From Minisyncoccota bacterium (GTDB lineage Bacteria > Patescibacteriota > Minisyncoccia > Phycocordibacterales > UBA9973), in contig JBBAAI010000001.1 in the NCBI GenBank assembly GCA_041658325.1, forward strand, positions 279,266 through 343,265: DNA of 64,000 nt, in the 5' to 3' direction. The notes beneath the pieces were generated by a model. It was not told the DNA's origin. It was given only the letters and a program-made list of their open reading frames with translations, and did no database searches. Position 1 is the first letter of the stretch; each line of letters begins with the position of its first letter. Below are positions 7,901 to 19,183 of this stretch, in pieces. The position numbers and the translations under genes were made by a program.

Positions 7901-8538
7901 AAGATAAAGATGGTAAAGAAAAAACAATTAAAGTTTTATCTGATACTAAGGTTGACGGTAAGAGCAATGAAATGGAGTATGAAGTGGCTTTTCGTAGAAC
8001 CCCGATTGTTAAAGTAGGAGATTCTGTAAAGAAAGGACAACTTTTAACTGATGGATCAGCCGATATTGCAGAAATATTTAGATTAGGAAGCAAAGAATTA
8101 GTTGAAGAATATATAATTTCAGAAATAAACAAGGTTTATGAACTTCAAAGCGCTTCAATTTCTAGAAAACACACAGAAATTATTGTTCGTCAGATGTTTT
8201 CTCGTAGAAAAATAAAAGATACCGGGGAAACTAATTTCTCAATTGGTGATATCGTTGAACATACAGATTTCATAGAAGAAAATGCTAGAGTGGCGGAAAA
8301 TGGAGAAAAAGAAGCAAAGGCAGAAACAGTAGTATTGGGAATTACTGAAGTATCTCTACGTACAAAGAGTTGGTTGTCGGCTGCGTCATTCCAAAACACT
8401 AACCGTGTTCTTATTGAAAATGCGATAAAGGGTGGAGTTGACTCTCTCCGAGGCTTAAAAGAAAACGTCATAATCGGGCGCTTAATTCCAGCTGGAACTG
8501 GATTTAAAAATAAGTTTTCTCAAGTTAAAGAGGAGTAA
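4930..8538 (+). CDS. rpoC: DNA-directed RNA polymerase subunit beta'
   Basis: The zinc-binding CxxC...CxxC motif is present near the N-terminus. The catalytic NADFDGD motif appears as [13 protein letters not shown]. The gene immediately follows rpoB. Confidence 0.95.
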
Positions 8539-8547
8539 AAAATAATT

Positions 8548-10287
8548 ATGAACTCTCCCGTGCAAAAAATTAAGGAGAGGCTATCAATTGAAGAAGTAGT
8601 CTCTTCTTACATAAAGCTCGACCGAGTAGGTCCGAATTTAAAGGCTAAGTGTCCGTTTCATAACGAGAAAACCCCGTCGTTTTTCATCTCGCCTGATCGA
8701 GGTACTTATTATTGTTTTGGCTGTGGAGCGAAGGGTGATATTTTTACTTTCGTGGAAGAATTTGAGGGTCTTGATTTTAGAGGAGCCCTCAAATTGCTTG
8801 CCGGTAGGGCAGGAGTAGTGTTAGAAACCTTCAATCCAAAGGAAGAAAGCGAAAAAGAAAAAATATACAGAATCATGGAAGAAGCCTCTTTGTTTTTTGA
8901 AAAAAACTTGAAAGAAAATATTGAAGTTTTATCTTATCTTAAAAACAGGGGATTAAACGATGAAAGTATAAAAAATTTCCGTATTGGTTTTGTGAAGAAT
9001 GATTGGAGAGAATTATACCAGTATCTTACGAGTAGAGGTTTTAAAGATAGCGAATTAGAAAAAGCTGGTTTGGTGAAAAAAACAGAAAAAGGTTTTTATG
9101 ATAGATTTCGTGGACGCATAATGTTTCCCATGGGAGATTCTAGTGGGCGTATCGTCGCTTTTTCTGGAAGAATTTTTGTGGATGACGGGAAGTCGGCCAA
9201 ATATTTAAATAGTCCCGAGACCCTAATATTCAATAAATCTTCCGTTCTTTTCGGTATAGACAAAGCGAAAGAGACAATCAGAAAAAACAATTTTTCTATT
9301 CTCGTGGAAGGACAAATGGACTTGATTCTAGCGCACCAGGCAGGATTTAAAAATACCGTAGCCTCATCTGGCACAGCAATGACAGATTCAATATTGTCAA
9401 AAGAAAATATTATCAATAACCTTGGACTTGTTACTAGATTGTCGAAAAATATTGTCTTGGCTTACGATTCTGATAAGGCAGGCATTAATGCTTCAAATCG
9501 CTTTGCCAAAATTGCTTTATCTTTAGGAATGGATGTAAAAGTAGCAGATATACCAGAAGGTATGGATCCAGCTGATTTGATTTCTAAGATGGGGACAGAA
9601 GCTTGGCGAGAAGCGATAAGAAATTCAAAACATTTTATTGAATTTATGCTCGCTAGAATATTAAAGGATACTGACGATAAACGAAAAGTAGGCAGAGAGA
9701 TAAAAGAACGTTTACTTCCTTTCGTAAATGATTTAGAAAGTTCTATAGAAAAATCACATTTTATTACTTTAATTAGCAATCAATCTAGTATTCCAGAAAG
9801 TGCTTTAATAGAAGATTTAAAAAAGGTTGAATTCGAACAAAAACACGAAAAAGAAGATACAAAAATTGCTATAGAAAATGTAGAAAAAAAATTAAGAAAA
9901 GATCCAATCGAACGCAGGCTTCTAGGTATAGCTTTTTGGCAAGAAAGTTTGAAAATTAAAAAAATAGACCCGGAATTAATTTTTAAAAAGCTAGCCTTGT
10001 CTATAGGCTCTGGGCCGAAGGAGCAAGTAAAAGAAAAATATAAGGAAGTAAAAGAAGATTTAATCTATGAAGTAGAAGAATTTTATTTAAATGATGAAAA
10101 TTTAGAAAAAGATGTGAACGAAATGCTTCTTAGTATTGAAGAAGAGTATTTAAATGAAGAATTAATAAAAAAAATGATGGAATTGCAAAATTTAAAAGGG
10201 AAGGAAGAAGAGGTAGAAATTTTTAAAAAAATAAATGAATTAAATAAAAGAAAAGAAGAAATTAAAAATGGTCGTTTAAAAAAGTAA
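8548..10287 (+). CDS. dnaG: DNA primase
   Basis: The CHC2 zinc finger [30 protein letters not shown] is present. The TOPRIM region shows [13 protein letters not shown] Shine-Dalgarno precedes the ATG. The C-terminus is Lys/Glu-rich. Confidence 0.88.
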
Positions 10288-10292
10288 AATTT

Positions 10293-11519
10293 ATGAAGAA
10301 AAAAATAAAACCTAAAAAAATAAATAAAAATAGTAAAGCTTTGAAAAAAGTTAAGAAAAATAAAAAGATAAAAAAGATTATTAAAAAACCTAAAAAAATA
10401 AAGAAAAAAATTCTTAAAAAAGATAAAGTTAAAAAGTTATCTTTGGCCGAAAAAAAGGCTGAGGGGCTAGAACATCTTGCTAATACTATTATAGAAAAAG
10501 GGAGAAAGCGTGGGTTTATAACTTATGATGAGATATTAAAAACTTTTCCAGATATAGAAAATAATATTCTATTTTTAGACGAACTTTATGAAAAATTCGG
10601 AGTAGCTGGTATTGATGTGCTAGAGGGGGGGAATCTGCTTAACTTAGACATTGATTTAGATGACAAAGATTTGAATAAAGGAATCATGCATGATTCTATT
10701 CAAATGTATTTAAAAGAAATAGGACAGTATCCGCTTATTCATGCTGGTGATGAAAAAGATCTAGCGAAGCGTATTGAACACGGAGACCTAGAGGCAAAAA
10801 ACTTGCTTGCTCGTGCTAATTTGCGTCTAGTTGTTTCCATTGCCAAAAAATACGTAGGCAGGAGTGCAAATTTAACTTTGCTTGATTTGATTCAAGAGGG
10901 GAATTTAGGTTTATTTAAAGCAGTGGAAAAATTTGATTGGACCAAGGGGTATAAATTTTCTACTTATGCCACTTGGTGGATTCGTCAATCCATTACCCGT
11001 GCTTTGGCGGACCAATCCAGAACAATTCGTATTCCGGTACACATGGTGGAAACAATTTCTAAATATAAACAAACACATCGTAGATTGAGTCAGGATTTGG
11101 GACGAGAACCGTTGGCTGAAGAAATAGCAACTGAGATGGGCATACCGGTTGAAAAAATACACGTCATTGAAAATATTTCTCAAGAAACTGTTTCCCTAGA
11201 ACAGCCAGTAGGAGACGACGATGATAAATCAACATTAGAAAACTTTATTCCCGATGATAAAATTTTGCGTCCAGACCAGGAATCTTCTCGCAGAATTCTT
11301 TCGGACCAAATTCGAGAAGTTTTAGATGAGTTGAATCCAAAAGAGCGCAAGATATTAGAAATGCGCTACGGGTTACTTGATGGTATCCAGCATACACTAG
11401 AGCGGGTGGGGGAAGAGTTCGGCGTGACTCGTGAACGCATTCGTCAGATCGAAGCCAAAGTGCACGAAAAACTCCGCCAGCACGAAAAGATTGCAAGATT
11501 AAAGAATTATTTTGATTAA
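10293..11519 (+). CDS. rpoD: RNA polymerase sigma-70 factor with Lys-rich N-terminal tail
   Basis: Region 2 shows [13 protein letters not shown]. Regions 3 and 4 carry the [14 protein letters not shown]. About 50 aa of K-rich low-complexity sequence occupy the position where acidic region 1.1 normally sits. Confidence 0.9.
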
Positions 11520-11522
11520 ACT

Positions 11523-11552
11523 AAAAAATCCCCTGAACCCAGGGTATTTTTT
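11523..11552. terminator. Bidirectional rho-independent terminator between rpoD (+) and the dsbA-like gene (-)
   Basis: A ccctg/caggg stem is flanked by an A-run upstream and a T-run downstream. Confidence 0.4.
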
Positions 11553-11562
11553 AGTTAGCAAT

Positions 11563-12303
11563 TTATTTTAATGCAGCATCAATTTTTGGTTTTACCGTAG
11601 TGTATGATTCAGCTCCATCAATAGTAGAGACAATTTTACCATTCCTTAAAATAAATCCTTTTGGTGTACCAGTGACCCCAGCGCTAGCTCCTTCATTTTT
11701 TGAATCTGCGACAGCTTGTGCGTATTTACTATCATCGAGACATTTATCAAAATTAGATGTGTTTAAGCCGAGTTCTTTCGCAAAGGATTTTAAGTTTAGA
11801 TCAGAAAAGTTTCCTTCATTCTCTCCATTTTGGTGGGTGAAGAGGTAATCATGATATTCCCAAAATTTCCCTTGATCTCCAGCACACCTTGCAGCTTCAG
11901 CAGATTTTTGAGATTCAGGTCCTAGAAATGCAAAGTCTCGATAAACAAATTGCACACTTCCATTTTTTACATAGTCATTTATAATCCTAGATACAAAAGG
12001 AGTCCAAGTAGCATCTCTCTGTTGTAAAGATTGAACCAGGGATTGAGTTCCGGCAGAAAGAGGTTCTAGTCCAGAAATTACCCCACAGAAAGGACACTGA
12101 AAATCCTCATACATGACAACCGTAACTTTTGCACTTGGGTTTCCGAGTATTCTGTCTTCTTTATTAATTGGTGCCAAGGTTGCGACAGGAATTCCATTCC
12201 CTTTTTGGATATTAGGGTTTTTACTATCTTTTAATAATATTGCGCCAGCAATCAGAACTCCCACTATCAATATTGCTCCGGCTATTTGTTTTTGATCCTG
12301 CAT
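11563..12303 (-). CDS. DsbA-like thioredoxin-fold thiol:disulfide oxidoreductase, membrane anchored
   Basis: An N-terminal TM helix is followed by the CPFC active-site motif in YEDFQCPFCGV, and by a thioredoxin/DSBA-like C-terminal region. Confidence 0.7.
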   Translation of the reverse strand: MQDQKQIAGAILIVGVLIAGAILLKDSKNPNIQKGNGIPVATLAPINKEDRILGNPSAKVTVVMYEDFQCPFCGVISGLEPLSAGTQSLVQSLQQRDATWTPFVSRIINDYVKNGSVQFVYRDFAFLGPESQKSAEAARCAGDQGKFWEYHDYLFTHQNGENEGNFSDLNLKSFAKELGLNTSNFDKCLDDSKYAQAVADSKNEGASAGVTGTPKGFILRNGKIVSTIDGAESYTTVKPKIDAALK

Positions 12304-12396
12304 AATTTTGTTGGTTATTTGTAATAATGCTATTGTAGCATATTTTTTGATTGTGATATAATTACTATAATGATAAAGGTCTTATTATTAGCTAAT

Positions 12397-12417
12397 TGTT
12401 CTGCTTTACGCGGAACA
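12397..12417. promoter_or_regulatory. Imperfect inverted repeat 14 nt upstream of the DUF378 start
   Basis: The arms are tgttctgc and gcggaaca with spacer tttac, which is 7 of 8 complementary. Candidate operator. Confidence 0.2.
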
Positions 12418-12430
12418 GAATATAAATAAT

Positions 12431-12715
12431 ATGTGTTGTAATGGAAAACATTGGGGTGGTTGCGTTGTTCATAAGACTTGTAAGGTTTTAGTAATGGTAG
12501 GTGGTTTAAATTGGGGTTTGGTGGGTTTGGGAATGTTAATGGGTAGTAAATTGAATGTTGTTAATATGGTTTTAGGATCTTGGCCGACAGCTGAGGCAAT
12601 TGTCTATCTATTGGTAGGTGTCGCAGTAGTTATGAAACTCTTTAGTTGCAAATGCAAGAAGTGTATGGAGGCATGTGCCACTTGCGGTGTTGAAAATATG
12701 GACAAAAAGATGTAA
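12431..12715 (+). CDS. DUF378-family small membrane protein with Cys-rich N- and C-termini
   Basis: The VGGLNWGLVG motif is characteristic of DUF378. Cysteine clusters are MCCNGKHWGGC at the N-terminus and CKCKKCMEACATCG at the C-terminus. Confidence 0.6.
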   Translation: MCCNGKHWGGCVVHKTCKVLVMVGGLNWGLVGLGMLMGSKLNVVNMVLGSWPTAEAIVYLLVGVAVVMKLFSCKCKKCMEACATCGVENMDKKM

Positions 12716-12740
12716 AGATTGTTTTCTTTTAACAAAAAAA

Positions 12741-12770
12741 GCCTCTTTTAAACAAGAGGCTTTTTTTGTT
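12741..12770 (+). terminator. Rho-independent terminator
   Basis: The hairpin gcctctt TTAAACA aagaggc is followed by TTTTTTT and preceded by an A-run. Confidence 0.6.
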
Positions 12771-12808
12771 TACATTTTAGTCTAAAAATGATATATTAAG
12801 CGCAATAC

Positions 12809-14053
12809 ATGACTTCAATTTTTGATATTATATTTTATATATTAATCTTTTTGTCTGTCTACGTGCAGGTGTTTTTTTTCGTTACTTTTTTGGAAAATAG
12901 AAAAAAAATAATTATTAGAAATGGAAAAATTAAACTAGGATTTTATCCTGCTGTGACAATCGCTGTGCCTTGCTGGAATGAAGAAAAAACCGTTGAAAAA
13001 ACAATCCATTCACTTTTAAACTTAAATTATCCAAAAGAGAAACTAAAAATATTTCTTATTAACGATGGATCCACTGATAATACTTTAAATGTTATAAATA
13101 AATTTTCCGGGTATCCTAATATAAAAATTTTTAACAAAGAAAATGGGGGAAAGTATACTGCTCTAAATTTAGCACTTGAAAATACAGAAACAGATTTTTT
13201 TGGTGGTCTTGATGCTGATTCTTTTGCAGACCCAGAATCACTTATTCGAATTATGAGTTATTTTGAGAAAGATCCTAAAACTATGGCTGTTGCCCCTTCT
13301 GTAATTGTATCTGATTCAAAAAATATTATTAAAAATGCCCAAAGAGCTGAATACAATATGGGGGTTTATTTTAAGAAAATGCTTTGTTTTTTGGAGGCTA
13401 TCAACGTTACCCCTGGACCTCTTACTATTTTTCGCAAGAAAGTTTTTAATGATTTAGGGTATTATCGTCACGGGCACAACACAGAAGATATGGAAATTGC
13501 TTACAGAATGCAAAAAAGTAGTTACAAAATAGAACATTGTAACGATGCGTTTGTTTATACTAATACACCAGGAACAGTTGGTAAACTTTATCGACAAAGG
13601 TTGCGTTGGATTTATGGTTTTATTAACAATACGATTGATTATAAAAATGTTTTATTTAAAAAAAGATATGGTAATTTTGCCATGTTTACTTTACCAATGG
13701 GGGTTGTTTCTATCCTTGCTGTTGGTTATCTTTTTGCTCGGGTAGCTTATGATGTGGGGCATTTTTTGTATTTAAAAGTTATGCAACTAAAAATAATTGG
13801 TTTTGATTTTTCTGTTAAAAATGTTAGTCTTGATCCATTTTTTATAAATACACAATTTTTTATATTTTTAGTTATTTCCATTTATATTCTAGTTATTTTT
13901 GCAATTATTTTTGGTCGAAGAATGTCCGAAGGAAAATCAGGTTTTTCTTTAGACATACTTTATTTTTTCCCTGTTTTCGGCCTGGTGGCTCCATTTTGGA
14001 TTATGAAAGCGATTTATAATACTTTTTTACACAGAAAACCGGCATGGAGATAA
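12809..14053 (+). CDS. Family-2 glycosyltransferase, processive type (NodC/PgaC/HAS-like), integral membrane
   Basis: An N-terminal TM helix is followed by a GT-A domain (AVPCWNEE, INDGSTD, DAD) and the processive-synthase QRLRW motif, then several C-terminal TM helices. Confidence 0.8.
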   Translation: MTSIFDIIFYILIFLSVYVQVFFFVTFLENRKKIIIRNGKIKLGFYPAVTIAVPCWNEEKTVEKTIHSLLNLNYPKEKLKIFLINDGSTDNTLNVINKFSGYPNIKIFNKENGGKYTALNLALENTETDFFGGLDADSFADPESLIRIMSYFEKDPKTMAVAPSVIVSDSKNIIKNAQRAEYNMGVYFKKMLCFLEAINVTPGPLTIFRKKVFNDLGYYRHGHNTEDMEIAYRMQKSSYKIEHCNDAFVYTNTPGTVGKLYRQRLRWIYGFINNTIDYKNVLFKKRYGNFAMFTLPMGVVSILAVGYLFARVAYDVGHFLYLKVMQLKIIGFDFSVKNVSLDPFFINTQFFIFLVISIYILVIFAIIFGRRMSEGKSGFSLDILYFFPVFGLVAPFWIMKAIYNTFLHRKPAWR

Positions 14054-14059
14054 AAACAT

Positions 14060-14737
14060 ATGAATAATAATATTGATTGGAAAAAATATTTAATTGTGTT
14101 TTTGATTACAGTGGGTCTTTTCTTTACCGCTATTTATTTGAGCAATTTTTTTGGTGATAAAAAAATTAATCAACTAAAAAGTATTCAAGACAAGATAGCA
14201 ATTGATATTTTATCATCAGAGACTCAATTTTCATTACTTTCTGAGCTTTCTTGTAAAAATATTTCTGATTCTGTTTTTTCTAGCGAGCTTGGTGAATTGG
14301 GAAATAAATTAGAATGGAGTCAGAAAAATCTAGGGGCAACCGAAGAGGTGTCTTATTTGAAAAAATATTACGCATTATTGCAAATTAAGGATTACTTATT
14401 AGCAAAAAAGATTTCTGCGAGATGTGGAACAAAGTCTGCATTTATTTTATATTTTTACACTACAGCAGAAAATTGTAGCTTGTGTGAAGAAGAGAGCTTG
14501 GTGTTAGGAACCTTGCGAGCAGAATACCCAGAACTTCGTGTTTATTCTTTCGATTATAGTACTGATCTGTCTGCCATTACTTCCATGCTTCAAATCTATA
14601 AAATAAAAGATACTGTGCTTCCGGCATTAGTTATAGATGATAATGTTCTGACGGGTTTTCATTCTATAGAAGAACTAAAAAAGAGGATTCAAGAATCTTT
14701 TAAGCTTCAAACAACAAAACCAGCAGGTAATAATTAA
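14060..14737 (+). CDS. Membrane-anchored thioredoxin-fold-like protein (CxxC)
   Basis: An N-terminal TM helix is followed by YFYTTAENCSLCEEE, a CxxC motif in thioredoxin-like context. The C-terminal TVLPALVIDDNVLTGFHSIEEL resembles a DsbA/Grx C-terminal strand-helix. Confidence 0.4.
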   Translation: MNNNIDWKKYLIVFLITVGLFFTAIYLSNFFGDKKINQLKSIQDKIAIDILSSETQFSLLSELSCKNISDSVFSSELGELGNKLEWSQKNLGATEEVSYLKKYYALLQIKDYLLAKKISARCGTKSAFILYFYTTAENCSLCEEESLVLGTLRAEYPELRVYSFDYSTDLSAITSMLQIYKIKDTVLPALVIDDNVLTGFHSIEELKKRIQESFKLQTTKPAGNN

Positions 14738-14768
14738 ATTACGCTTTTAATCTCCGTTAACCTTTTTG

Positions 14769-14841
14769 AGCCGCCTCTCGGATTCGAACCGAGGACCTTC
14801 ACTTTACAAAAGTGTTGCTCTACCAACTGAGCTAAGGCGGC
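14769..14841 (-). tRNA. tRNA-Thr (anticodon TGT)
   Basis: The 73-nt cloverleaf was read by hand. The acceptor is GCCGCCT/AGGCGGC. The D-arm is GCTC-AGTTGGTA-GAGC. The anticodon loop is TTTGTAA. The T-arm is CTCGG-TTCGAAT-CCGAG. Confidence 0.85.
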
Positions 14842-14850
14842 GATTAATCG

Positions 14851-15246
14851 TTATAAATTTTCCTCTTCTTTTACTTTTTGTTTTATTTTTCTAATCTTGT
14901 TTTTATATTCTGAAATCTTTTTCAAAAATTTACTCACTTCTCTTTTTTCTTCAATATTTAATTTTTTACTATGTAAATCTTTTACTTTTACTTTTATTTC
15001 TTGATACTTGTTTTTAAAAACATTAGAAGATCGCATGTAAAGTCTTATTGTCGCTACAAGTCCAGCATAACCGTGTTTTTTTATTTCTTTTATTGCTTGG
15101 TGTCTCCATTCTTCTAGGTGTGGAGTTTTGAAAGAAATTTCTTCTCTAGCTAAGACTTGTCCACCTTGGAGCATCAATAATTTTCTTCCGATCATAAAAA
15201 TGATTCCCAAAAGCGATCCAAAAAATAAAATTAAAAGAAAATACAT
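14851..15246 (-). CDS. Hypothetical membrane protein (N-terminal TM, Lys/Glu-rich C-terminus)
   Basis: This ORF has coding-like composition and lies upstream of tRNA-Thr on the same strand. No family was recognised. Confidence 0.45.
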   Translation of the reverse strand: MYFLLILFFGSLLGIIFMIGRKLLMLQGGQVLAREEISFKTPHLEEWRHQAIKEIKKHGYAGLVATIRLYMRSSNVFKNKYQEIKVKVKDLHSKKLNIEEKREVSKFLKKISEYKNKIRKIKQKVKEEENL

Positions 15247-15256
15247 TATTTTATTA

Positions 15257-16036
15257 TTATATTGAGTAAATTTTTACTTCTTTGATTTTTGCCCCAGCTT
15301 TTTCCAGAAGCTTTCCAACCGTTTGTTCTCCGTCCTTTATGAAAGCTTGGTCCAATAAAGTTTTTTCTTTAAAATACGTTGCCATTTTCCCTAGGAGCAT
15401 TTTTTCTTTTATTTCTACTGGTTTATTTATATTAGCAATTTCTTTTTCAAAAATTTCTCTCATTGTATTCTTGGTATCTTCAGGTATTTCTTCTTGTGAA
15501 ATATATTCAGGTTTCATCGCAGTCACATGCATAGCCACATCTTTTGCAAGTTCTGTATTTCCACCCGTTAAGCTCACGATGACGCCTGTTTTGTTATTAT
15601 GTACGTAGTTTCCTAAAACATCGCCATTTACTTCATAAGTAACACCCAACTGAATATTTTCCCCAGTTTTTTGAATTATTGGATCTATCGTTTCTTTTGC
15701 ACTTGCTTTCATTTTTTCTACTCCATCTTTGAGTGCTTGTTTTGTGAGGGTTTCTAGGAGGTTCGTAAAATCTTCATTTCTTGCTACGAAATCGGTTTCA
15801 CAATGCAAAGATACTAAAACTGCTTTTTTGCCTTCAGTTTTGACAGAGACTCTTCCATCTTTAACTTCACGATTAATTTTCTTTAGGGCAATATCCGAAC
15901 TCGTTTTTTTTAAAATAGCGAGTGCTTTTTTCATATCTCCCTCTGCTTCTTCGAGGGCGCGCTTACATTGCATTACGGAAATACCCGTACTGTCGCGGAG
16001 CTCTTTTACTTGCTCTGTAGTGATTTGAATAGACAT
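15257..16036 (-). CDS. tsf: Elongation factor Ts
   Basis: The N-terminus MSIQITTEQVKELRDSTGISVMQCKRAL carries the EF-Ts UBA-like domain. I chose the internal ATG at 16036. The longer ORF would extend upstream and abut the rpsB stop. Confidence 0.9.
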   Translation of the reverse strand: MSIQITTEQVKELRDSTGISVMQCKRALEEAEGDMKKALAILKKTSSDIALKKINREVKDGRVSVKTEGKKAVLVSLHCETDFVARNEDFTNLLETLTKQALKDGVEKMKASAKETIDPIIQKTGENIQLGVTYEVNGDVLGNYVHNNKTGVIVSLTGGNTELAKDVAMHVTAMKPEYISQEEIPEDTKNTMREIFEKEIANINKPVEIKEKMLLGKMATYFKEKTLLDQAFIKDGEQTVGKLLEKAGAKIKEVKIYSI

Positions 16037-16040
16037 ATAT

Positions 16041-16766
16041 CTAAGATTTTTTTTCAGGGATAGAGTTTTGACCTTCTTTATAAGTGTTTCCAATAGCAGT
16101 AACAAAGAATTTGATAGATGGTATTCCTGCATCGTTGGCAACGATAGGGTAGTCGATTCCTTTTATGTTTGAATCAGAATTTATTAAAGCGATTACTGGA
16201 ATGCCAGATTTTCTAGATTCTGTCGCTGCGATGTGTTCACTGCGTGAATCTACAATAAACAATGCGCTTGGAGCTTTTTTCAGACCAATTAACCCAGAGT
16301 AGTATCTAGTAAGTTTTTCCATCTTTTTTGCCATTACCACTCTTTCTTTTTTTGTATATTTATCAAGACCACCTTCAACACTATCCTTGCGATAATTTTC
16401 AAGTTCAGTAATTCTCTTTTTTATTTCTGTGAAATTGCTCAATGTTCCCCCTATCCATCTTTCTACAACGTAAGGCATGTTGAGGGATTCTGCTATGTCT
16501 TTAACTACAACTTTAGCTTCAGGTTTTGTTCCAACAAAAAGAACAATTTTTCCTGCTGCTCCTAATTCCTTTATAAACTCTGCAGCCTTATCTAGCATTA
16601 CACTTGTTTTTTCAAGATTAATTATGTCTCCTTTGTTTTTTGTGGTGTATATATATGAAGAAACAGAAGGGTGTCTTCTGGTTTTGCTGTAGCCGTAATG
16701 CGCTCCAGCTTTGAACATTTTTTCTACCACTGTATCAACTTCTTTCTTGTTTTCTACTTTTTGCAT
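16041..16766 (-). CDS. rpsB: 30S ribosomal protein S2
   Basis: The uS2 N-terminal motif MFKAGAHYGYSKTRRHPS is present. I chose the start at 16766 because the longer ORF would overlap the divergent proS start. The rpsB-tsf order is conserved. Confidence 0.9.
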   Translation of the reverse strand: MQKVENKKEVDTVVEKMFKAGAHYGYSKTRRHPSVSSYIYTTKNKGDIINLEKTSVMLDKAAEFIKELGAAGKIVLFVGTKPEAKVVVKDIAESLNMPYVVERWIGGTLSNFTEIKKRITELENYRKDSVEGGLDKYTKKERVVMAKKMEKLTRYYSGLIGLKKAPSALFIVDSRSEHIAATESRKSGIPVIALINSDSNIKGIDYPIVANDAGIPSIKFFVTAIGNTYKEGQNSIPEKKS

Positions 16767-16869
16767 ATGAATTAATATAGCAGAAAGCTGTGTTTTTTGC
16801 AAATTCTCCTCTTGTTCTGTAAAAGTTTTTTTCTTTGACCAAAAGACTTTTTTCGGGTAAGATGCTCTT

Positions 16870-18132
16870 ATGAGACAATCTAAACTTTTTACCAAAACTA
16901 GGAAAGAAGCTCCGGCGGACGAAACTTCAAAAAATGCAGAGCTTTTGATACGAGGGGGATATATTCACAAAGAAATGGCAGGAGTGTACAGCTACCTACC
17001 GCTCGGTTTACGGGTCTTAAAGAAGATCGAGAACATAATCAGGGAAGAGATGAGCAAGGTGGGCGGGATAGAAATGAAAACATCCATACTTCAAGATAAG
17101 GAAATTTGGGAAAAGACTAACCGATGGGATGATAATGAGGTGGATATTTGGTTTAAAACCAAATTGAAGAATGGCGCAGACGTCGGCTTATCTTGGAGCA
17201 ACGAAGAAAATTTTGCCAACATTTTAAAACAATACGTTAGTTCTTACAAAGATCTACCTCTTTATCTTTATGATTTTAAAGATATTTTACGAAACGAGGT
17301 CAGAAGCAAATCAGGTATTATGCGGGGGAGAGAATTCTATTGGAAGGCATTGTATTCCTTTTCTAGAAACGAGACAGAGCATAATGATTTTTACGAGAGA
17401 ATGAAAGTAGCTTATCGAGATATTTTTAAAAGGGCCGGAATAGGACACGCGACTTATCTAACTTTTGCTTCCGGTGGAGCATTTTCAAAATATTCTCATG
17501 AATTTCAAACACTTACTTCCGCCGGTGAAGATACTATATATGTTAGTGAGGATAATGCTATGGCGGTAAATAAGGAAGTGATGGAGGAAGAAATACTCGC
17601 AAGTTTAGGTTTAGAAAAAAATAAACTAGTGGAACATAGGGCAATTGAAGTAGGTAATATTTTTACCCTAGGGACCAGTAAACCAGAAGCATTAGGACTT
17701 TCCTATGTGGATAAAAATGGAGAAAAAAACCATGTTTTTATGGGTTCCTATGGCGTCGGCCTTGGGCGCCTTATGGGGACGGTAGTAGAAGTACTTTCTG
17801 ATGATCATGGCATAGTTTGGCCGGAATCTATAGCGCCGTTTGCTGTGCACCTACTCGCGCTTGGTGACGACGAAGAAGTATTGAAAGAAGCAAACAAGAT
17901 TTACGAAAATCTAGAAAAAGCTGGTGTTGACGTTTTGTTTGATGATCGTGAAGGATTATCAGCAGGAGAAAAATTTTCTGATGCAGACTTGCTAGGTATG
18001 CCTTGGCGAGCAGTAGTTTCTGTTAGAAGTATGAAAGAAAAAGGTATCGAAATAAAAAAGCGAACAGAAGAGAAGGGGAAAATTGTTTCGACAGAAGAGT
18101 TATTAAAAATACTAAACGAAAAGGTTTCTTAA
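16870..18132 (+). CDS. proS: Prolyl-tRNA synthetase (short form lacking the INS editing domain)
   Basis: Class II motifs and the ProRS N-terminus (LFTKTRKEAPADETSKNAELLIRGGYI) are present. At 420 aa it is too short to contain the editing insertion. Confidence 0.88.
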   Translation: MRQSKLFTKTRKEAPADETSKNAELLIRGGYIHKEMAGVYSYLPLGLRVLKKIENIIREEMSKVGGIEMKTSILQDKEIWEKTNRWDDNEVDIWFKTKLKNGADVGLSWSNEENFANILKQYVSSYKDLPLYLYDFKDILRNEVRSKSGIMRGREFYWKALYSFSRNETEHNDFYERMKVAYRDIFKRAGIGHATYLTFASGGAFSKYSHEFQTLTSAGEDTIYVSEDNAMAVNKEVMEEEILASLGLEKNKLVEHRAIEVGNIFTLGTSKPEALGLSYVDKNGEKNHVFMGSYGVGLGRLMGTVVEVLSDDHGIVWPESIAPFAVHLLALGDDEEVLKEANKIYENLEKAGVDVLFDDREGLSAGEKFSDADLLGMPWRAVVSVRSMKEKGIEIKKRTEEKGKIVSTEELLKILNEKVS

Positions 18133-18136
18133 AAAT

Positions 18137-19183
18137 ATGTTCGAAAAATTTTACAAATTAATTTCAAATGATATCGGCATAGATTTGGGTACTTCCAATA
18201 CCTTGGTGTATTTAAAAGGTCACGGAATTGTAATCAATGAGCCATCCGTGGTAGCTGTTAATATAAAAACTAATCAAATTTTAGCGGTGGGAGCACAGGC
18301 TAAAGAAATGCTTGGACGTACTCCAGGACACATCAAAGCTATTCGTCCACTTGTGGATGGTGTTATTTCTGATTTTGAAGTGACCGAAGAAATGCTTTCT
18401 TATTTAATAAACAAAGCAGACAAGATATCAAAAAAAATAGCACGACCGAGGGTTTTGGTAGGCGTGCCTTCTGGTACAACCAATGTTGAGACAAGGGCTG
18501 TTTATGACGCAGCTCGTTCGGCTGGAGCCAGGGAAGTTTTTTTAGTAGAAGAACCAATGGCGGCTGCTATTGGGATAAGACTTCCCATTAAAGATCCAGT
18601 CGGATCTATGATTATAGACATTGGTGGTGGTACGACTGATATTGCGGTGATTTCTTTGGGCGGAATTGTAAAGTCAAAAAATTTAAAAATAGCTGGAGAC
18701 AGATTGAACAACGATATTATTACTTATATGCGAGATGAATTTAAAATACTTATTGGAGAAAGAACTGCGGAAATGGTAAAAATTGCTATTGGTTCAGCTA
18801 TTCCAGGAGAATATATGGAAACAGAAGTTCATGGGCGAGATCTCTTAACTGGATTGCCCAGGGAAGTAGTGGTAACAGATTCTGATATTCGCGAAGCTCT
18901 TTTGCTTTCGATAAAAGGTTTAGTTGAAGGGGTAAAAGATATGTTAGAAACGACGCCACCTGAAATTTTGTCTGACATAATGCATCGCGGAATTACTTTA
19001 TCTGGAGGTGGAGCTTTGCTTTCAGGGTTGGATCAGCTACTACAAAGAGTTCTAAAAATTCCAGTTTATGTTGTAGAAGATCCGCTCTCGGCGGTAGCTC
19101 GTGGGACGGGGGTTATTTTAGATGACATTTCATTTTATAAAGAAGTTTTGATTGGTAATCAAGATGAGTTACCTCCTAGATAA
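18137..19183 (+). CDS. mreB: Rod shape-determining protein MreB
   Basis: The actin-fold motif DIGIDLGTSNTLVY and the DIGGGTTDIAV phosphate-2 motif are present. Confidence 0.92.
   Translation: MFEKFYKLISNDIGIDLGTSNTLVYLKGHGIVINEPSVVAVNIKTNQILAVGAQAKEMLGRTPGHIKAIRPLVDGVISDFEVTEEMLSYLINKADKISKKIARPRVLVGVPSGTTNVETRAVYDAARSAGAREVFLVEEPMAAAIGIRLPIKDPVGSMIIDIGGGTTDIAVISLGGIVKSKNLKIAGDRLNNDIITYMRDEFKILIGERTAEMVKIAIGSAIPGEYMETEVHGRDLLTGLPREVVVTDSDIREALLLSIKGLVEGVKDMLETTPPEILSDIMHRGITLSGGGALLSGLDQLLQRVLKIPVYVVEDPLSAVARGTGVILDDISFYKEVLIGNQDELPPR

Follow-up and report, generated by a model that had tools for sequence, protein, structure and literature searches.

The stretch analysed here (the window) comprises 64,000 nucleotides of contig JBBAAI010000001.1 of a Minisyncoccota bacterium. 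Downstream of rpoC, dnaG and rpoD, which are all encoded on the plus strand and of which rpoD ends at 11519, four genes lie close together. The first, on the minus strand (11563..12303), encodes a DsbA/BdbD-like, membrane-anchored thiol-disulfide oxidoreductase of 246 aa with a CPFC site, assigned by Pfam. It is followed on the plus strand by genes for a Cys-rich DUF378 protein of 94 aa with two transmembrane (TM) segments (12431..12715, also assigned by Pfam), for a membrane-embedded synthase of glycosyltransferase family 2 (GT2) of 414 aa with the motifs DDGS, DAD, TED and QRLRW (12809..14053) and for a single-pass membrane protein of 225 aa that has a helical stalk as well as a thioredoxin domain and is here called TrxL (14060..14737). 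All open reading frames that an earlier note on this DNA had reported were found again where it had placed them. That note had read the four genes as one envelope module. We arrive at a smaller unit of two genes and consider it fairly probable that TrxL is a thioredoxin-fold co-subunit of the synthase, encoded in the position that PgaD and IcaD occupy in their operons.

The GT2 protein matched Pfam Glycos_transf_2 with an E-value of 6.6e-32. Compared with NCBIfam, PgaC_IcaA (TIGR03937) was the best of 28 families with 173.8 bits (E 5.7e-51), the next family reaching 87.5 bits, and the match extended over residues 6-408 and over model positions 3-393 of 407. The motifs DDGS, DAD, TED and QRLRW were invariant in sets of 21 and 40 homologues. 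An AF2 model (pLDDT 82.1) showed helices at 4-33, 257-277, 289-329, 351-374 and 381-407, with 1+3 long hydrophobic helices, and Foldseek placed hyaluronan synthases (HAS) and BcsA on top, with E-values from 6e-16 to about 1e-11 and TMq of 0.55-0.69. Both the GT-A domain and the packing of interface helix and TM helices that characterise processive GT2 synthases of the BcsA/HAS/CHS type were present in the model. GT2 is a membrane-embedded synthase of the processive type, PgaC/IcaA-like by sequence and HAS/BcsA-like by fold; the earlier note, which had recognised a processive synthase with QRLRW, was right in this respect. The TED motif is typical of PgaC and BcsA, and EDR of NodC, chitin synthases and HAS. 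Because of its TED motif and its PgaC_IcaA match, assignment of GT2 to the PNAG/cellulose branch (PNAG, poly-N-acetylglucosamine) is favoured over the NodC/chitin/HAS branch.

TrxL gave no match in Pfam, with no thioredoxin-type family at gathering score, and among 96 members of its family sub-threshold matches to any one thioredoxin-type family were obtained in only 4-7. Its AlphaFold model, computed from the 96-sequence alignment (pLDDT 89.6), showed a long helix at 7-60, the first part of which is hydrophobic, helices at 73-91 and 95-122, and then the order beta-alpha-beta-alpha-beta-beta-alpha that defines the thioredoxin superfamily. Matches to known structures were confined to the last ~100 residues; ResA, BdbD and DsbA-like chains were among the weak profile matches, and in the profile match to PDB entries C139xxC142 (CSLC) and P188 aligned to the CxxC and the proline of thioredoxin. 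TrxL belongs to the thioredoxin superfamily and to no curated family within it. The earlier note had described the protein at 14060 as a membrane-anchored thioredoxin-fold protein and had made its proposal depend on that fold; structure prediction shows the fold, and the conserved CxxC and proline agree with it.

The TrxL family is large, with 3699 homologues and 839 clusters at 50% identity; among the homologues, an NCBI protein from a metagenome-assembled genome of the Candidatus Paceibacterota/Nomurabacteria type was 100% identical to TrxL of the window. In the family alignment C65, C122 and P188 were invariant, C139 and C142 were at least 90% conserved, and exactly four cysteines were present in 88/96 members. 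Four cysteines and the proline were all kept in 292 of 317 full-length members. In 22/317 (about 7%) the CxxC was lost as a pair while C65/C122 were kept, and these members were still preceded by GT2; loss of C65/C122, again as a pair, was seen in 1/317. The pairwise losses suggest that the TrxL sequence holds two separate units, a structural disulfide (C65/C122) and a redox pair (CxxC). As the association with GT2 was kept where the CxxC had been lost, the redox site is not required for association with the synthase.

Gene linkage was followed in two sets of loci. The close set came from 80 species-representative genomes of the same clade, with the loci selected by TrxL similarity; the distant set consisted of 80 metagenomic loci with 30-49% identity to a distant TrxL member, 53 of which had at least 1300 nt of upstream sequence. 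GT2 lay directly upstream of TrxL in all 75 close loci with enough sequence. Among the 53 distant loci, the GT2 gene ended no more than 150 nt upstream of TrxL in 46 and no more than 220 nt upstream in 50; in two of the remaining loci it was found at about 870 nt, and one had no GT2. Genes flanking the distant loci belonged to many different families, among them an archaeal-type protein that combines a Zn-ribbon with HTH_3, and the pair was also found on a contig carrying the archaeal ribosomal protein S3Ae (Ribosomal_S3Ae). In locus L090 a TrxL homologue of 27% identity followed the same type of GT2 among genes for MutS, NFACT, a GtrA-type GT2 and PMT_2. The GT2-TrxL linkage exceeds what shared ancestry explains, and it spans distant bacteria and some archaea. 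Within the clade, TrxL was conserved with a median identity of 77%, above ribosomal protein S2 or EF-Ts, a figure inflated by the selection of loci by TrxL similarity.

The other two genes behaved differently. Among the 67 close loci that showed the stretch from rpoD through GT2, DsbA was absent in 12 and DUF378 in 5, and the order DsbA(-)/DUF378/GT2/TrxL was present in 50. A DsbA or DUF378 match was found in none of the 80 distant GT2-TrxL loci. The stretch from rpoC to proS is syntenic across the clade, so that the presence of DsbA and DUF378 in it is indistinguishable from shared ancestry and does not count as independent evidence. Since the linkage of GT2 and TrxL persists in distant, unrelated contexts without DsbA or DUF378, GT2 and TrxL alone form the conserved module. 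The co-occurrence analysis that the earlier note had asked for thus divides its four-gene module: the linkage of GT2 and TrxL stood (75/75; 50/53), whereas DsbA and DUF378, lost in close loci and missing from the 80 distant ones, showed no conserved linkage outside the clade.

The DsbA-like protein matched Pfam Thioredoxin_4 (3.3e-27, 96.1 bits, cut-off 23.2) and DSBA (8.1e-15, 55.5 bits, cut-off 25.6); these matches above cut-off, together with the CPxC site, place it in the DsbA/BdbD type, as the note had supposed for the CPFC protein at 11563. It has an N-terminal TM segment, and its identity among relatives was 29-72%. A tblastn search for DsbB in the 64-kb window gave no DsbB-like match. 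In the relative L088, a DsbB gene (11510-12055) was located about 5 kb downstream of GT2~TrxL, so that a DsbA/DsbB pathway can exist in these organisms. From its sequence, the DsbA-like protein is classed as an ordinary membrane-anchored oxidase candidate, a clade-specific neighbour outside the conserved module.

The DUF378 protein, which starts with MCCNGKHWGGC...CKCKKCMEACATCG, matched PF04070 at 1.1e-10 with 41.6 bits (cut-off 25) and has two conserved hydrophobic segments. Conserved features were an N-terminal MC.NGK..GGC, a CxCxxCxxxCxxC arrangement after TM2 and the residues C73, C75, C78 and C85; the relatives in alignment A1 also shared the Met-Cys start and a nearly invariant C-terminal Met. 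Both the identity of the protein and the cysteine clusters at its two ends, which the earlier note had pointed out, were confirmed, and conservation of the clusters in relatives indicates that they are not due to chance. All 7-9 cysteines lie on K/R-rich tails (1.7 and 3.9 K/R per tail), while the loop of 18 residues is neutral and contains no Cys. The tails, and hence the cysteines, are predicted to be cytoplasmic, which would leave them without a plausible role as substrate or partner of extracytoplasmic disulfide exchange; the role that had been proposed for DUF378 in such exchange was dropped for this reason. As the most likely reading, the cysteine tails may bind a metal at a juxtamembrane site. 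A terminator, found in a terminator scan on the plus strand 3' of DUF378 (12731..12770), consists of a 17-bp stem followed by a T-run and folds with -24.9 kcal/mol (z -5.1). With this terminator and a promoter-like site of its own, DUF378 reads as a separate transcription unit. The Cys-rich DUF378 subfamily was seen only within the rpoD-DsbA-DUF378-GT2 synteny block, and a literature search on DUF378 returned no functional study, its top-ranked hit dealing with DUF3780.

These data bear on the reading in which all four genes form one envelope module, with a disulfide relay from DsbA to TrxL coupled to polysaccharide synthesis and DUF378 acting as a metal or redox sensor. The recurrence of the gene order, which is also seen around more divergent DUF378 homologues, the conserved DUF378 cysteines and the DsbB gene of L088 would fit it. 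The order is, however, not independent of the rpoC-proS synteny, GT2 and TrxL remain where DsbA or DUF378 has been lost, and DUF378 is bounded by a promoter-like site and a terminator of its own, with cysteines on predicted cytoplasmic tails and none in the outer loop. We regard this reading as quite unlikely: the four-gene interpretation of the locus was over-extended and is corrected to the two-gene GT2-TrxL unit.

Upstream of DUF378, sequence inspection revealed an extended -10-like element on the plus strand (TGATATAAT, 12354..12362), presumably for the DUF378 transcript, of which the form TGnTAnAAT was also present upstream in relatives, and an additional TATAAT at 12366-12371 on the same strand. 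The DUF378 5' untranslated region (5'UTR) begins with a leader motif, AAAGGTCTTATTATTAGCTAATT (12375..12397, plus strand), which is partly palindromic around GGTC and conserved in relatives, occurring in 37 of their 66 unique upstream regions. The window contained this sole exact match, and near matches were no commoner than in shuffled sequences. In relatives, the leader consisted of the extended -10, the motif AAAGGTCTTTATTA..TTAAT, an A-rich stretch and the ATG. Folding confirmed the hairpin that had been noticed 14 nt before the DUF378 start (12396..12418, plus strand): it has 9 bp, including two G.U pairs, and the loop UUUAC, with 14 nt between the end of its 7-bp core and the ATG. Folding of the entire 5'UTR gave -13.6 kcal/mol (z = -3.5), and none of 200 dinucleotide shuffles folded as well. 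The predicted fold of the window sequence also pairs 12383-12389 with 12425-12431 as an outer A-U helix that takes in the region around the DUF378 start codon. About half of the 66 unique sequences had a stable hairpin between motif and A-rich stretch, with unrelated sequences and in some cases GNRA or UUCG loops; compared with shuffles, the mean z of the related leaders was -1.56, and 56% were below -1.5. The leader structure looks as if it had been selected; it belongs to DUF378 and not to the synthase operon. For the leader (12352-12430 in the window), possible functions are those of an operator, of an element that stabilises the mRNA or of a thermometer-like element.

A promoter-like site precedes GT2-TrxL on the plus strand (12769..12797; TTTACA, 17 nt, TG-TATATT), identified by consensus match only. 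TrxL starts 6 nt after the GT2 stop. The C-terminus of GT2 is a nearly invariant Trp-Arg (TGG AGA TAA; window 14045-14062), and the GGAG in the stop region TGGAGATAA lies about 10 nt before the TrxL start codon. When this end was assessed as a Shine-Dalgarno sequence for TrxL, TGGAGATAA was common, yet other Arg codons also occurred, so that it is at least in part the amino acid sequence that is conserved. The Trp-Arg end may be kept for the protein itself and for translational coupling alike.

The downstream end of the operon is marked by a tRNA-Thr(UGU) gene on the minus strand (14768..14841; ARAGORN, Rfam tRNA 69.9 bits). In an Rfam scan of 11000-15500 this was the only match above threshold, and all sub-threshold matches fell on the DUF378 terminator. 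At the other side of the locus, a short G+C-rich hairpin with T-runs on both strands (11531..11544, no strand assigned) was detected by the terminator scan between the convergent rpoD and DsbA-like genes and is likely a bidirectional terminator. Beyond the tRNA gene, the minus strand encodes a 131-aa protein (14851-15246) with an N-terminal TM segment and a lysine-rich coiled-coil tail, which could be assigned to no family and sits between tRNA-Thr and tsf in most relatives, with identities of 28-68%. Some close relatives, as seen in locus L005 (6805-12610), have no tsf-rpsB block after TrxL but, in its place, a run of large, secreted-looking proteins (Gly_rich_2, weak Dockerin_1), so that GT2-TrxL borders a variable surface-protein region in such relatives. 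In the distant, partly archaeal loci L097-L176, a conserved polytopic membrane protein of ~481 aa was encoded directly upstream of GT2 in 25-28 of 44 loci (about 2300-3740 in L097). It belonged to no Pfam family, phmmer detected no similarity to PMT_2, and the protein possibly forms a third subunit in the distant branch. Genes for PMT_2 GT-C and Dpm1-like GT2 proteins were also frequent neighbours in L097-L176.

The membrane side of the thioredoxin domain was judged from charges and from fused or adjacent enzymes. Across the 96 family members, the N-terminal tail of TrxL carried 3.1 K/R per about 10 residues with a net charge of +2.4, and the 15 residues after the TM segment had a net charge of -0.1; by the charge-difference rule this places the N-terminus inside and the thioredoxin domain outside. 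Two fusions of TrxL with PIG-L, a GlcNAc (N-acetylglucosamine) de-N-acetylase family, were found (P0248 and P0270), both with intact SPHxDD and HxDH motifs, and P0270 was itself preceded by GT2. A standalone PIG-L gene followed directly after TrxL in L061 and L076, and the N-terminus of the L061 protein, MKKNFLIIIFFVLLAGSLVYF, is a signal peptide or anchor. None of the 80 distant GT2-TrxL loci contained a PIG-L match, and none was found by tblastn in the 64-kb window. Taken together, the charge bias, the fused or adjacent PIG-L domains and the L061 signal peptide favour TrxL as an outward-facing platform, and we consider it likely that its thioredoxin domain faces outward. The link to PIG-L suggests that the product contains GlcNAc and would be de-N-acetylated outside the cell.

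In L061 (6686-10186), genes for a TagD-like cytidylyltransferase, for the PIG-L deacetylase with signal peptide and for a 720-aa protein are inserted directly after TrxL. The 720-aa protein is Cys-rich and membrane-anchored and had no Pfam match. The insertion suggests a larger envelope-glycopolymer island.

Several observations weigh against an outward-facing co-subunit of a PNAG-type synthase. The dipeptide within the TrxL CxxC is very variable, unlike that of known oxidases and reductases. GT2 remained below the PgaC_IcaA equivalog cut-off (173.8 versus 422.3 bits), which bears on sugar and linkage. The flanking charges of the TrxL in the window are ambiguous, with 4 K after the TM segment and only 2 before it. 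The PIG-L protein of L076 has no signal peptide, and characterised PIG-L/LmbE enzymes are cytoplasmic. By helix count, the modelled GT2 could have its C-terminus outside, and an in-frame GT2~TrxL fusion of 717 aa, P0304 (L088, 3970-6123), would in that case place the thioredoxin domain inside. This fusion occurred in one metagenome-assembled genome, lacks the conserved ..W-R end of GT2 and has a linker with 7 Lys and no acidic residue. As Rosetta-stone evidence for the pair it was reduced to low weight, being a single case without that end and probably a frameshift.

Part of these observations would fit a cytoplasmic thioredoxin domain through which thiol redox regulates the catalytic GT domain, or a metal bound there by the four cysteines of TrxL: the 1+3 helices of GT2, if all span the membrane, with P0304 as a consequence, the cytoplasmic location of characterised relatives of the PIG-L domains fused in P0248 and P0270, and the lysines of the window TrxL. 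The charge bias of the family as a whole and the signal peptide or anchor of the L061 PIG-L protein argue against it, as do the retention of C65/C122 on loss of the CxxC, which is the behaviour of a structural disulfide, and the Ser/Thr-rich C-terminal tails of TrxL; P0304 is probably an artefact. A cytoplasmic thioredoxin domain is therefore considered unlikely.

As regards the product, no PgaD or IcaD was found downstream of GT2, since TrxL matched neither in Pfam or NCBIfam. With the PgaC_IcaA cut-off unmet and PgaD missing, the GT2-TrxL pair is, by sequence comparison, not a member of the PgaCD family. Of chitin, PNAG and hyaluronan, a PNAG-like GlcNAc polymer is favoured by the motifs TED and QxxRW, by the best match to PgaC_IcaA and by the PIG-L linkage. 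The enzyme might instead make a glycolipid or a short oligosaccharide, as do NodC or the processive diacylglycerol glycosyltransferases of GT21, with TrxL as a lipid-facing or unrelated partner. Pfam Glyco_transf_21 matched weakly to moderately (1e-06 in GT2, 7.5e-14 in P0304), the small 1+3-helix architecture resembles that of NodC, and Dpm1-like GT2 and PMT_2 GT-C genes lie near distant loci. PgaC_IcaA was, however, the best full-length match, with only 54.8 bits for the NodC family, the motif is TED and not EDR, and the best structural matches were polymer-translocating synthases, so that a glycolipid or oligosaccharide product is given little probability.

The locus also has a superficial likeness to a glycocin cluster of the sublancin type (sunA-sunT-bdbA-sunS-bdbB), in which GT2 would S-glycosylate a small Cys-rich protein whose disulfides would be made by thioredoxin-like proteins. 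It has a GT2, two proteins with thioredoxin fold and a small product rich in Cys. Here, GT2 is a polytopic protein that has QxxRW and the HAS/BcsA fold, and not a soluble enzyme of the SunS type. DUF378, a member of a broad family, has two TM segments and no leader peptide, and outside the clade it is unlinked to GT2-TrxL. No peptidase-ABC transporter was found in 8000-19000. A glycocin cluster of the SunS/GccA type is effectively refuted by the polytopic GT2, the membrane protein DUF378 and the missing exporter.

In the favoured explanation, with TrxL as co-subunit of the synthase, GT2 would polymerise a nucleotide sugar, most likely UDP-GlcNAc as judged from its family, at the cytoplasmic face and thread the chain through the membrane. 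TrxL would be translated from the same mRNA, its TM helix packing against the small synthase and its stalk and thioredoxin domain standing at the outer face near the polymer exit. There it would scaffold polymer-modifying enzymes, with a PIG-L-type GlcNAc deacetylase fused or adjacent in some lineages. In most lineages its CxxC might in addition make it a thiol-disulfide switch or a foldase. This redox site would be an add-on and not the core role, because about 7% of members without CxxC still follow GT2. The DsbA-like protein would be a general extracytoplasmic oxidase that is nearby by chance in this clade and could reoxidise TrxL. A bolder version, in which the thioredoxin domain of TrxL covers the exit of a minimal PgaC-like synthase and gates it by redox state, is a doubtful but conceivable extension. 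Whether an adhesive GlcNAc polymer is secreted or modified would then depend on the state of the CxxC, which would follow the redox conditions outside and so control host attachment, in a system shared, probably through gene transfer, by Candidate Phyla Radiation (CPR) bacteria and DPANN-like archaea, the two large groups of ultra-small episymbionts.

Attachment to other cells is the way of life of Patescibacteria and DPANN archaea, and to our knowledge almost nothing is known of their surface polymers. The product of GT2-TrxL is a candidate adhesion or biofilm polymer of these organisms, made by a synthase-dependent polysaccharide system that is here reduced to two genes. TrxL represents a previously unannotated thioredoxin-fold family, and thousands of sequences labelled 'hypothetical protein' gain a name and a testable role with it. 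The pair may be the first example of a polysaccharide synthase that is subject to thiol-redox control or to scaffolding of this kind; literature searches found nothing on a thioredoxin-like or thioredoxin-fold partner of PNAG-type synthases, and nothing on glycosyltransferases of this GT2 kind in Patescibacteria or Nomurabacteria.

As a synthase with a proposed membrane co-subunit, the pair would work most like PgaC-PgaD, IcaA-IcaD or BcsA-BcsB. Among these known systems, PgaC needs the small membrane protein PgaD, which is encoded just downstream (PMC8461298). PgaC-PgaD of Escherichia coli (pgaABCD) and IcaA-IcaD of Staphylococcus (icaADBC) resemble the present pair in that the gene for a GT2 with few TM helices (about 410-440 aa) precedes one for a small membrane protein, the partner being required for activity in the known systems (PMC8461298). 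A GlcNAc deacetylase belongs to both, namely PgaB or IcaB in the PNAG systems and, in some relatives here, PIG-L with TrxL; the enzyme is however of the PIG-L/LmbE type and not CE4, and no link to c-di-GMP was evident. TrxL has no similarity to PgaD or IcaD and consists of one TM segment and a stalk and thioredoxin domain of 190 residues with a conserved CxxC.

BcsA-BcsB and the hyaluronan synthases (4HG6/4P00, 7SP6, 8SMM) share with GT2 the GT-A domain, the QxxRW interface helix and the TM helices, of which GT2 has only 4, compared with 8 in BcsA and 6 in HAS; GT2 has no PilZ domain. TrxL differs from BcsB, which has carbohydrate-binding and ferredoxin-like domains and a C-terminal anchor, by its thioredoxin fold. 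BcsB is a partner protein with a single TM anchor and its bulk at the outer face, where it guides the polymer, and serves as the working analogy for TrxL. In Streptomyces, the cellulose-synthase-like GT2 CslA is accompanied by GlxA, a co-transcribed, membrane-anchored copper oxidase that is matured via the thioredoxin-fold chaperone Sco. There as here, a processive GT2 has as operon partner an extracytoplasmic redox protein (by prediction in the case of TrxL) at the site where the glycan emerges; the likeness is conceptual only, GlxA being a radical copper oxidase without thioredoxin fold and without sequence relation to TrxL.

In its own architecture TrxL is closest to ResA, CcmG/TlpA, StoA and BdbD/DsbA, with which it shares an N-terminal TM anchor, a thioredoxin fold that is presumably outward-facing in TrxL as well, and a CxxC with a proline that is probably cis. 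It differs from them in the three-helix region before the thioredoxin domain, in the extra invariant pair of cysteines and in the highly variable CxxC dipeptide. Whereas those oxidoreductases serve cytochrome maturation or general folding, TrxL is tied to a glycosyltransferase.

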